This document shows, piece after piece, positions 2,982 through 5,260 of a DNA stretch of 5,260 nt; the first letter of the stretch is position 1; every line of letters starts with the position of its first letter. The stretch lies in the IMG/VR virus record IMGVR_UViG_2667527608_000018. The stretch is one strand, 5' to 3'. This DNA is from a virus (lineage: Duplodnaviria > Heunggongvirae > Uroviricota > Caudoviricetes). The position numbers and the translations under genes are program-made. The notes under the pieces are model-generated. The model ran no database searches. It was not told the origin of the DNA and worked only from the letters and a program-made list of their open reading frames with translations.

Positions 2982-2998
2982 GGTTATGAGATATAGCT

Positions 2999-3202
2999 AT
3001 GAGTAGCTTATTTTTAACCGAAGATGAATTGCTAATATTAACGGGCTGCAAATATGCAAGCCACCAGCGAAAATGGTTAACGGAAAACGGGCTTCCGTTC
3101 TATACCAATCGTAGTGGCAAACCGATTGTCAGCCGGGATCTATTTACCTGCAATAAAACTTTACCACCACGCGAGGTAGAGCCGAATTTTGGTGCAATCT
3201 GA
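2999..3202 (+). CDS. xis: Small excisionase-like / recombination directionality factor-like protein (67 aa), resembling the DUF4224-type proteins found immediately upstream of prophage integrases
   Basis: Small ORF directly upstream of the integrase; its stop TGA (3200-3202) overlaps the integrase ATG (3202-3204) as TGATG. The N-terminal LTEDELLILTGCK pattern matches my recollection of DUF4224-like proteins. Confidence 0.55.
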   Translation: MSSLFLTEDELLILTGCKYASHQRKWLTENGLPFYTNRSGKPIVSRDLFTCNKTLPPREVEPNFGAI

Positions 3203-4227
3203 TGGGAAGACGAAGGAAAAATCCTGAACACGAAAAACTACCTCCAAATGTATACCCAAATAAATATAGTTATGTATGGAAACCAACATCCAGAGAATCT
3301 GTCACACTAACCGCCATCAAGGATGGTTTAGCTGCTTTATGGAAAAGGTATGAGGAAACTGTAAATAATCGCGATCGCGCAATGACATTCGGTCGCTTGT
3401 GGGAAAAATTCCTCGCCAGCGCCTATTACAGTGACCTCAGTCCAAGAACACAAAAAGATTATCTACAACATCAAAAAAAGTTGCTTGCCGTATTCGGTAA
3501 GGTGCCGGCAGATTCCATAAAACCAGAACACATCCGTCGATACATGGACAAGAGAGGGGAGCAGAGTAAAACGCAAGCCAACCATGAAAAAAGCAGTATG
3601 TCCCGCGTTTACAGTTGGGGGTATGAGCGAGGGTACGTGAAAGGTAACCCATGTGCAGGTGTAAGTAAATTCAAGGCCAAAAACCGCGAACGATATGTAA
3701 CCGACAAAGAATACCAGGCAGTATTAAGCGTTGCACCTCTTCCTGTTTTTATCGCAATGGAAATTGCCTATCTGTGTGCAGCGAGGGTTTCCGATGTGTT
3801 ATCGCTGAAATGGGAGCAGATTGGAAACGACGGAATCTTTATCCAGCAAGGGAAAACAGGAAAAAAACAGATAAAAGCATGGAGTCCACGATTACAGGCG
3901 GCGATCGAAAAAGCAAAACAGTTACCAACATCCGCCTATGTAATCAGTAATCAATACGGCAACCGATATATGTACAAAGGCTTTAACGAAATGTGGGTAG
4001 AAGCAAGAAATCGCGCAGGCAAAATTTCAGGTATTTTAACCGACTTCACCTTTCATGATCTGAAGGCGAAAGGAATTTCAGACTATGAAGGAAGCAGTCG
4101 GGATAAGCAACTTTTCTCTGGTCACAAAACCGAGGGGCAAGTGCTAATCTATGACAGGAAGGTTAAAGTTTCACCGACACTTGATGTCCCGTTACCTGAA
4201 AATATTCCAAGAAAATATTCCAAGTAA
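3202..4227 (+). CDS. int: Tyrosine recombinase, lambda-family phage integrase (341 aa)
   Basis: N-terminal MGRRRKNPEHEKLPPNVY resembles the lambda Int arm-binding N-terminus (MGRRR...LPPNLY). Catalytic-domain landmarks are present: AARVSD (Arg I), QQGKTGKK (beta-hairpin Lys), FHDLK (His plus the position of Arg II), GHK and LIYDR (catalytic Tyr codon 4150-4152). Confidence 0.9.
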   Translation: MGRRRKNPEHEKLPPNVYPNKYSYVWKPTSRESVTLTAIKDGLAALWKRYEETVNNRDRAMTFGRLWEKFLASAYYSDLSPRTQKDYLQHQKKLLAVFGKVPADSIKPEHIRRYMDKRGEQSKTQANHEKSSMSRVYSWGYERGYVKGNPCAGVSKFKAKNRERYVTDKEYQAVLSVAPLPVFIAMEIAYLCAARVSDVLSLKWEQIGNDGIFIQQGKTGKKQIKAWSPRLQAAIEKAKQLPTSAYVISNQYGNRYMYKGFNEMWVEARNRAGKISGILTDFTFHDLKAKGISDYEGSSRDKQLFSGHKTEGQVLIYDRKVKVSPTLDVPLPENIPRKYSK

Positions 4228-4234
4228 TTCCAAG
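4198..4234. repeat. Tandem direct repeats at the integrase 3' end: 13-bp unit GAAAATATTCCAA twice (4198-4210, 4211-4223), with the 8-bp core ATTCCAAG present three times (4204-4211, 4217-4224, 4227-4234); candidate integrase arm-type binding sites
   Basis: Read directly from the sequence. The repeat copies fall in different reading frames of int (encoding ENIP versus KYSK), which argues for conservation at the DNA level rather than the protein level. Confidence 0.5.
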
Positions 4235-4279
4235 TGTGATTTTTGTCACTGACTTAATGATGTATAAGTGATTGAATTT

Positions 4280-4369
4280 TGGCGGAGAGAGGGGGATTTG
4301 AACCCCCGGTGGAGTTGCCCCCACTCCGGTTTTCGAGACCGGTCCGTTCAGCCGCTCCGGCATCTCTCC
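4280..4369 (-). tRNA. serU: tRNA-Ser (anticodon CGA), 90 nt with long variable arm
   Basis: Reverse complement reads GGAGAGATGCCGGAGCGGCTGAACGGACCGGTCTCGAAAACCGGAGTGGGGGCAACTCCACCGGGGGTTCAAATCCCCCTCTCTCCGCCA: 7-bp acceptor stem, anticodon loop CTCGAAA, T-loop GGTTCAAATCC, encoded CCA end. It matches my memory of E. coli serU. Confidence 0.93.
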
Positions 4370-4404
4370 GTTCAGATGGTTGCCATGATGCCAGGAAATT
4401 TGGC

Positions 4405-4413
4405 ATTTTAACA
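4405..4413 (-). promoter_or_regulatory. Possible extended -10 element (TGTTAAAAT on the - strand) for the tRNA-Ser gene, lying in the divergent serU/mtfA intergenic region
   Basis: TGnTAAAAT motif about 35 nt upstream of the tRNA 5' end on the - strand; no good -35 at 17-bp spacing. Pattern match only. Confidence 0.2.
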
Positions 4414-4462
4414 GTCCCTGTCCGTGCAATTTTGTTCAAGTGACGAGTTTGCGAGCAAAACG

Positions 4463-5260
4463 ATGATTAAGTGGCCCTGGAAAGTACAAGAATCAGCACA
4501 TCAAACTGCCCTTCCCTGGCAGGAAGCACTATCGATCCCCCTTTTAACGTGTCTGACGGAACAGGAACAAAGCAAATTAGTCACTCTTGCCGAACGTTTT
4601 TTACAGCAAAAGCGGCTTGTTCCTTTACAGGGCTTTGAACTGGATTCATTAAGAAGCTGCCGGATAGCACTTCTATTTTGCCTACCCGTTCTGGAGTTAG
4701 GACTGGAATGGCTGGATGGTTTTCATGAAGTCTTAATTTATCCTGCGCCATTTGTGGTCGATGATGAATGGGAAGACGATATCGGTCTGGTGCATAACCA
4801 ACGTATTGTTCAGTCAGGTCAGAGCTGGCAGCAAGGGCCTATCGTTTTGAACTGGTTGGATATACAAGATTCTTTTGATGCTTCTGGTTTTAACCTGATT
4901 ATTCATGAAGTCGCTCATAAGCTGGACACCCGTAACGGCGATCGCGCCAGCGGAGTTCCCTTTATTCCGTTGCGTGAGGTTGCTGGCTGGGAACACGATC
5001 TTCATGCTGCAATGAACAACATTCAGGAAGAAATCGAATTGGTTGGCGAGAATGCGGCGAGCATTGATGCTTATGCTGCCAGTGATCCTGCTGAATGTTT
5101 TGCCGTACTTTCTGAATATTTCTTTAGCGCCCCAGAACTTTTTGCTCCTCGTTTCCCTTCATTGTGGCAACGTTTCTGCCAATTTTATCAACAAGATCCT
5201 TTGCAGAGACTGCATCGCACTAATGATACAGACTCGTTTTCGGCGACGAATGTTCATTAA
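4463..5260 (+). CDS. mtfA: MtfA (Mlc titration factor A), zinc-dependent peptidase with HExxH motif (265 aa); host gene
   Basis: Translation from ATG 4463 begins [20 protein letters not shown] and contains [10 protein letters not shown] (HExxH). The length and sequence match my recollection of E. coli MtfA/YeeI, which neighbours serU. The ORF track's upstream ATG at 4424 adds 13 residues and is probably not the true start. Confidence 0.9.

Follow-up and report, generated by a model that had tools for sequence, protein, structure and literature searches.

The window analysed here, the whole 5,260-nucleotide stretch of IMG/VR record IMGVR_UViG_2667527608_000018, represents the int-side end of an Escherichia coli lambdoid prophage, adjoining the tRNA gene serU, and the element in question is a short sequence, ATTCCAAG, that stands three times at the 3' end of the integrase gene. 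This gene, int (3202-4227, + strand), is an open reading frame for a lambda-type tyrosine integrase (Int) of 341 amino acids (aa) with matches to Pfam families PF00589, PF22022 and PF14659. Its start is overlapped (ATGA) by a gene of the DUF4224 family (2999-3202, + strand; PF13986, E 2.8e-16), whose excisionase (Xis)-like product is presumed to act as recombination directionality factor. The DUF4224 gene lies directly upstream of int in most relatives examined, and no such open reading frame was recovered for phages Chris1 or Evi. The integration target serU, encoding tRNA-Ser(CGA), occupies 4280-4369 on the - strand (ARAGORN; Rfam RF00005). Of 5426 complete E. coli genomes searched by megablast, 1152 contain int together with its arm, carriers of the prophage family including O157:H7, O111 and O145 strains, and prophage-free genomes align only from about window position 4264 onward.

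Pattern search of the window placed exact copies of ATTCCAAG on the + strand at 4204-4211, 4217-4224 and 4227-4234, with a spacing of 13 and 10 bp, and found no further exact copy in it. Tandem Repeats Finder reported GAAAATATTCCAA in 2.1 copies at 4198-4224 (100% matches) and ATTCCAAGTA in 1.9 copies at 4217-4235. Copies 1 and 2 are embedded in a perfect 13-bp tandem, two units of GAAAATATTCCAA at 4198-4223 on the + strand, and the tandem crosses the int stop codon, a TAA at 4225-4227 between copies 2 and 3. The original prediction, made from the letters of the window, had described three copies at this spacing, two of them within a perfect tandem, and had placed them 46-76 bp from the tRNA's 3' end; both statements are borne out, since the trio at 4204-4234 starts 76 bp and ends 46 bp from the tRNA-Ser(CGA) end at 4280. 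Frame analysis likewise agrees with its remark that the copies lie in different codon phases and are not explained by a repeated peptide: all three phases differ (..AAT ATT CCA AGA AAA TAT TCC AAG TAA TTC CAA G), and the last nine Int residues (ENIPRKYSK) are encoded by copies 1 and 2. In first-order Markov simulations of the window, any non-trivial 8-mer occurred three times within 40 bp in 7 of 3000 runs, and a perfect 13-bp tandem in none of 3000.

Two loci served to map the crossover: L004, in which serU is unoccupied, and L005, a complete related prophage of strain AR_0013 whose two ends were both compared with the window. L005 is 99.0% identical over window positions 2990-4440 and was the source of the distal arm. 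A 62-bp block at 4280-4341, the phage-supplied 3' part of serU, is common to attL, attR and attB. Within it, attL carries G4311 and C4322 where attB and attR have A and T; since these two bases are specific to attL, phage-derived DNA reaches at least to 4322, and the exchange lies within 4323-4341. This interval is the anticodon stem-loop CCGGT TTTCGAG ACCGG, with the stem at 4326-4330/4338-4342 and the loop TTTCGAG at 4331-4337, centred on 4334. The repeated motif ATTCCAAG is unrelated to the stem-loop sequence CCGGTTTTCGAGACCGG. With strand exchange in the anticodon loop, a distance of 100-130 bp separates the trio from the crossover, and the earlier figure of 46-76 bp is correct for the tRNA end, not for the crossover. 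As a separate observation, G4311 and C4322 form a compensatory base pair in the variable-arm stem of the serU tRNA; this pair is phage-supplied, and therefore lysogens express a slightly different tRNA-Ser(CGA).

The motif is confined to the two arms of the attachment site. In the 49.9 kb read around the AR_0013 prophage, ATTCCAAG occurs five times on both strands, three times at attL and twice in the phage arm at attR, and a search of both strands found none elsewhere. The distal arm carries it inverted, as CTTGGAAT, at +47 and direct, as AATATTCCAAG, at +112 from the crossover centre. The attP rebuilt from attL and attR accordingly has direct sites at -130 (candidate arm-type site 1, outermost and P'3-like, 4204-4211), -117 (site 2, P'2-like, 4217-4224, its last base directly before the stop codon) and -107 (site 3, core-proximal and P'1-like, 4227-4234, beginning on the last stop-codon base), followed by the inverted site at +47 and the direct one at +112. 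Within the initial 200 bp of that arm, two or more exact matches are expected by chance with a probability of about 2.6e-5 from composition, and were seen in 3 of 200,000 shuffles. The original prediction had pointed to the other prophage end as a place where the motif might recur, and there it was found in both orientations.

Relatives were gathered by tblastn on complete phage genomes (Int 47-62% identical), and attL or attP sequences of closer relatives via the protein database; a viral-contig scan with Int gave only loci at least 99% identical and was uninformative on divergence. Site positions were counted from the anticodon-loop centre of the tRNA fragment in each attP. Among the relatives at serU, KpF5 carries TTTTCTCA at -131, -118, -108, +47 (inverted) and +110, ST64B has the same motif at the same positions, Chris1 has ATACCAAG/C at -131, -118, -107 and +112, and P0010 (Int 69% identical) has ATTCCAAG with single-base variants at -130, -117, -107, +46 (inverted) and +111. 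The serT phage BUCT708 carries ATTCTAAG at -131, -118, -107 and +46 (inverted). At leuZ, mEp390 has four tandem copies of ATGGCGAA plus sites at +46 (inverted) and +111, ZF40 has ATTAGGAA at -155, -143, +46 (inverted) and +110, and Fostie has TATTATGA at -156, -143 and +47 (inverted); in these three leuZ phages the tandem sites lie further out, at -134 to -165. No exact copy of the respective arm motif was found in the remaining 3-4 kb of each relative's locus. The positions -130/-117/-107/+47/+111 are thus kept, within 1-2 bp, in nine complete relatives and several attL loci, most of the relatives examined, across eight different motifs. Where the trio is kept, site 1 falls at -130/-131, site 2 at -117/-118 and site 3 at -106 to -108.

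A comparison of seven attL arms, ungapped and anchored on the tRNA end, shows the repeats as conserved islands: 6/8 columns are invariant in site 1, 8/8 in site 2 and 6/8 in site 3, against 6/29 in the 29-bp spacer at 4235-4263 that leads from site 3 to a further conserved element. This element, at 4265-4277 on the - strand, reads ATTCAATCACTTA, one mismatch from WATCAANNNNTTR, and resembles the consensus for integration host factor (IHF). It stands at -69, between trio and core, as an H'-like element, and in the seven arms 12/13 of its columns (TAAGTGNTTGAAT) are invariant. Perfect matches to WATCAANNNNTTR lie in the distal arm at +25 and +80 (2383-2395 and 2438-2450 of L005), these being consensus matches only. 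The same holds for the IHF-consensus matches that recur, regardless of the arm motif, at -69, +24 and +79 in most relatives; the position of the -69 element, for instance, is kept in Chris1, ST64B, KpF5 and P0010, which have other arm motifs. From these sequence matches we infer IHF binding at -69, +25 and +80. Two other structures were seen in this part of the arm. ST64B (L086, about 2557-2592) has the inverted 11-bp repeat ACGTGATTTTC ... GAAAATCACGT in the stretch that separates its arm-site trio from the IHF-like element, where some further factor, Xis for example, could bind. In relatives that target serT (L087, L090, L105) a strong GC-rich hairpin, e.g. AAGGGGTTACC..GGTAACCCCTT, separates the trio from the tRNA end, at a position occupied by the IHF-like element in serU-targeting phages.

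Conservation of the repeats does not depend on the coding sequence; the original prediction had recommended this comparison. In P0003, P0004, P0006, P0010 and P0012 (Int 89-68% identical) the int frame enters the sites as it does in the window, and the sites are kept down to an Int identity of 68%. In P0009 (Int 76%) int ends with ..LPLVKTS* and the three sites begin directly after the stop codon. ECL27829 (L097/L098) has an Int that is 96% identical, with a nearly identical N-terminal domain and the tail ..LPLVKKEG*, and two inserted genes, one for an ImmA/IrrE metallopeptidase and one hypothetical, separate int from the sites; its trio lies in non-coding DNA, 1.1 kb downstream of the int gene, and keeps its -130/-117/-107 distances from the serU loop. 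In phage Evi (L090, 2540-2800) attP as a whole has the opposite orientation with respect to int, with a trio of CTTGGTATA beyond the serT fragment and a single site adjoining int. Moreover, in most phages of the ST64B group the sites stand after the int stop codon and not across it. That the sites overlap int is incidental: its reading frame extends into them and yields a disordered tail.

The motif changes with one part of the integrase. Compared with the window, the C-terminal parts of Int in ST64B and KpF5 are 65-66% identical and the N-terminal domains 35-37%, and the motif is unrelated; in P0010 and P0012 the C-terminal parts are 68% and the N-terminal domains 70-75% identical, and ATTCCAAG is kept, in P0012 even though its target is serT and not serU. 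Xis behaves differently. Between BUCT708 and ZF40 it is 68% identical while the motifs (ATTCTAAG vs ATTAGGAA) are completely different, and between the window and BUCT708 it is 40% identical while the motifs are one base apart. Because identity of the N-terminal domain, and not that of the C-terminal part or of Xis, parallels the change of motif, the arm motif in these sequence comparisons follows the Int N-terminal domain and neither the catalytic domain nor Xis.

Int aligns to lambda Int from its first residue (MGRRR..LPPNxY; phmmer E 1.6e-12), and a family profile aligns with lambda Int residues 1-340 (E 5e-21). AlphaFold, run on the full protein and on residues 1-68, places strands at residues 17-19, 23-26 and 34-38 and a helix at 43-58, with a predicted local distance difference test (pLDDT) score of 72-88. 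In Foldseek, the best match of the full Int model was full-length lambda Int over 335 columns. For the isolated N-terminal domain against the whole Protein Data Bank, the top match was the lambda IntDBD(1-64) on P'2 DNA (2wcc; TM 0.50, 65 columns, probability 0.82) and the second was lambda Int in the excisive complex (5j0n_F). The N-terminal domain (residues ~1-60) is therefore predicted to carry a lambda-like arm-binding fold, a three-stranded sheet plus helix.

The arrangement can be compared with that of lambda (Int structures in PDB entries 2wcc, 1z1b and 5j0n), whose arm-type matches in NC_001416 are P1 at -141 (+), P2 at -111 (-) and P'1-P'3 at +55/+65/+76 (+). The original prediction had stated that the lambda P' sites are tandem and overlap the C-terminal end of int near the core, which we verified on NC_001416, where P'3 overlaps the int stop codon. 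General lambda recombination biology was taken from PMC4880445. Both systems have five sites as 3 + 2 with the tandem trio adjoining int, the outermost member of the trio lies at or over the int stop codon, and on the other arm the core-proximal site is inverted and the distal one direct. Further, both share the order int, P'3-P'2-P'1, H', core, H2, P2 (inverted), H1, P1, with the H elements represented here by IHF-consensus matches between arm sites and core, and an Int that begins MGRRR..LPPNxY with a predicted sheet-plus-helix N-terminal domain. There are also differences. The motif is (C/A)AGTCACTAT in lambda and ATTCCAAG here, strands cross over in the anticodon loop of a tRNA gene, the arm with two sites is shorter (+47/+112 vs -111/-141) and leaves no space between core and inverted site for an Xis/Fis block like that of lambda, Xis is of the DUF4224 family, and the two Int proteins share only about 20% identity. 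Much closer are ST64B (Salmonella), KpF5, Chris1, BUCT708, Evi, ZF40, mEp390 and Fostie, which share the integrase family (47-62% identity), in most cases the DUF4224 Xis, and targets in the anticodon loops of serU, serT or leuZ; unlike the window, each subgroup has its own arm motif, tracking the N-terminal domain. In KplE1/HK620 IntS, which targets argW, arm-type sites likewise lie inside the sequence space of the int gene, so that its DNA is shared with recombination signals; there, according to PMC2951348, they overlap the intS promoter and mediate autoregulation. Here the overlap is with the 3' end and stop codon of int.

Arm-type sites are what makes lambda-type integrases directional and controllable. 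The proposal that the repeats of the window are such sites is supported by the distal-arm copies, the positional conservation and the covariation with the N-terminal domain, and on this evidence the three copies of ATTCCAAG are very probably the int-proximal, P'-type arm-type Int sites in the attP of a serU lambdoid prophage. As in lambda, Int would then be heterobivalent: the core-binding and catalytic domains would act at the serU anticodon stem-loop, where strands are exchanged, and its small N-terminal domain (~1-60) would grip the ATTCCAAG arm sites during insertion into or exit from serU, with IHF bends at -69, +25 and +80 bringing the arm-bound N-terminal domains back to the core. Physical binding by Int and IHF, like the assignment of individual sites to integration or excision, is what we infer from this arrangement.

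Several points weigh against this interpretation. The N-terminal domain went unrecognised at Pfam and NCBIfam thresholds, PF09003 reaching 15.7 bits on Int (cutoff 22) over residues 1-20 only; phmmer of the domain against 1kjk gave E 1.4, and the Foldseek E value of the isolated domain against 2wcc is only 0.16. The trio is 100-130 bp from the crossover, compared with 55-84 bp in lambda, the P' side being stretched because 54 bp from the 3' part of the tRNA are also carried on that arm. Some natural alleles have 2, 4 or 5 tandem sites; either their precise count may be non-critical, or a good many of these prophages may be defective. AR_0013, and not the window's own genome, supplied the distal arm; strain 2011C-4251 (L003), which is identical over window positions 2990-4440, has a rearranged tandem-prophage end. 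At 46424-50000 of that locus a second, similar prophage (truncated int, DUF4224, exonuclease) stands in tandem at serU, with IS3 at the junction, and therefore the first prophage lacks a normal distal end within the 50 kb read. Lastly, no description of the arm sites of this integrase group was found in the open-access literature searched, and a 2025 paper on ST64B uses attP without mapping arm sites. The kind of site is well known, and this set together with its family-wide map appears to be undescribed in the open-access literature searched. To our knowledge, arm-type sites have been mapped in only a handful of phages.

Other explanations of the repeats were weighed against the same evidence. 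Directionality-factor sites, such as X1, X1.5 and X2 of lambda, are typically direct repeats of a short sequence, set in tandem at intervals of roughly one turn of the helix, and the 13-/10-bp tandem spacing resembles them; as the DUF4224 gene lies directly upstream of int in most relatives, the repeats might bind this excisionase-like protein and not Int. Xis-type sites, though, would be expected on a single arm, in the stretch from the core to the arm-type site closest to it, and their specificity would follow Xis; the motif here is on both arms, in both orientations and in the 3 + 2 pattern of lambda Int. The two Xis comparisons given above (a 68% identical pair with ATTCTAAG and ATTAGGAA, a 40% identical pair with motifs one base apart) run the same way, and we regard binding by the DUF4224 protein as very unlikely. 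The thought that the repeats are a functionless product of replication slippage at the int end has in its favour that the 13-bp unit is perfect in the window and present in 1-4 copies among E. coli genomes, so slippage does occur here. Yet the -130/-117/-107 trio is the family norm, also with non-identical units and differing motifs, the motif recurs on the distal arm, and the 8-mers are the conserved islands while the spacers vary. Slippage accounts for the copy-number variation and not for the existence of the sites, and as an explanation of the latter we give it hardly any chance.

The repeats could instead belong to the end of int or serU transcription, or to a host regulator such as CRP. 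Transcription of serU reads into the int-proximal arm, and directly after site 3 stands TGTGATTTTTGTCAC (4234-4248), which matches 9/10 positions of the CRP consensus (TGTGA-N6-TCAC) and whose GTGTGA is invariant in seven relatives. The right half of this palindrome is not conserved, and as a conserved element it was rejected, conservation being limited to GTGTGA. Moreover, promoter and terminator scans of 4050-4480 found no terminator-like or promoter-like sites, and Rfam found no RNA family beyond the tRNA. A role of this sort would leave the distal-arm copies and the covariation with the N-terminal domain unexplained, and it too strikes us as extremely improbable. That a repeated peptide is needed in the Int C-terminal tail is suggested by the tail ENIPRKYSK encoded by sites 1 and 2, and it can be practically discounted: the copies are in different frames, the tail they encode (residues 334-341) has a pLDDT below 50 in the AlphaFold model, in close relatives int stops short of the sites (..LPLVKTS*, ..LPLVKKEG*), which are retained downstream, and natural alleles give four different tails. 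The three codon phases together with the non-coding sites in P0009, ECL27829 and Evi rule out a coding repeat. We therefore return to arm-type Int sites as the preferred reading of the trio.

The 13-bp unit GAAAATATTCCAA is variable in copy number, with 1-4 units among E. coli genomes. Alleles with one, three and four units were read directly, and counts were made among about 1150 genomes; they are approximate because the BLAST identity bands are confounded (two-piece matches joined at 100%), and they were checked against one another with three queries. One unit is found in strain 114 (L096), with an Int of 345 aa ending in ..PENIPSNSKCDFCH*, and in at most 8 genomes. The two-unit allele of the window (341 aa, ..PENIPRKYSK*) is present in about 1065 genomes, three units as in EC4115 (L095; 360 aa) in about 80, and four units as in Z1323HEC0355 (L094; 358 aa) in at least one. 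Each 13-bp step shifts the frame of the disordered Int tail, and the four natural alleles accordingly have four different tails. The two-unit allele can be regarded as canonical because three sites at 13-/10-bp spacing are the family norm. The Prokaryotic Genome Annotation Pipeline (PGAP) of NCBI, for its part, calls the two-unit int a frameshifted pseudogene (L003 996-2046, L005 48146-49196) and the one-, three- and four-unit alleles intact; this flag reflects the choice of reference, not damage.

Each slippage step of 13 bp changes the number of sites as well as the Int tail. The unit might thus work as a contingency-type switch, in which altered numbers of P'-type sites and altered tails (341, 345, 358, 360 aa) tune or disable integration and excision of the serU prophage across E. 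coli lineages, an idea that we consider speculative and on balance unlikely. As a side observation, the three-unit allele, with four tandem sites and the 360-aa Int, is common to many O157:H7 genomes (the EC4115/TW14359/SS17/SS52 group) and could be usable as a lineage marker.

The analysis provides a base-precise attP map on which five candidate Int sites, three candidate IHF sites and the crossover, located in the anticodon loop of serU, are placed. It covers a prophage family present in about one fifth of complete E. coli genomes, with relatives in Salmonella (ST64B), Klebsiella, Citrobacter and Pectobacterium. The combination of fixed positions with a motif linked to the N-terminal domain is a data set for how arm-binding domains read DNA and for the design of orthogonal integrases; with at least eight specificities at the same positions, the family might offer a natural recognition code for such domains. 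It also corrects an annotation habit, as the commonest int allele is flagged as frameshifted merely from its frame entering a variable repeat, and it draws attention to a natural polymorphism in repeat number with a possible effect on prophage mobility.

Beyond the attachment site, the window holds mtfA (4424-5260) downstream of int and, upstream of it, a RecE-like/3'-5' exonuclease region (470-2940). The exonuclease gene is split into two overlapping open reading frames, 470-2341 and 2248-2940. Relatives have a single gene of 2472 nt, compared with 2471 nt in the window, which also has a diverged mosaic patch at about 2167-2400; the window's gene is therefore probably frameshifted. Within it, a 21-bp coding tandem repeat (4.3 copies, 74% matches) at 1993-2083 encodes a low-complexity stretch rich in Q, N and E.

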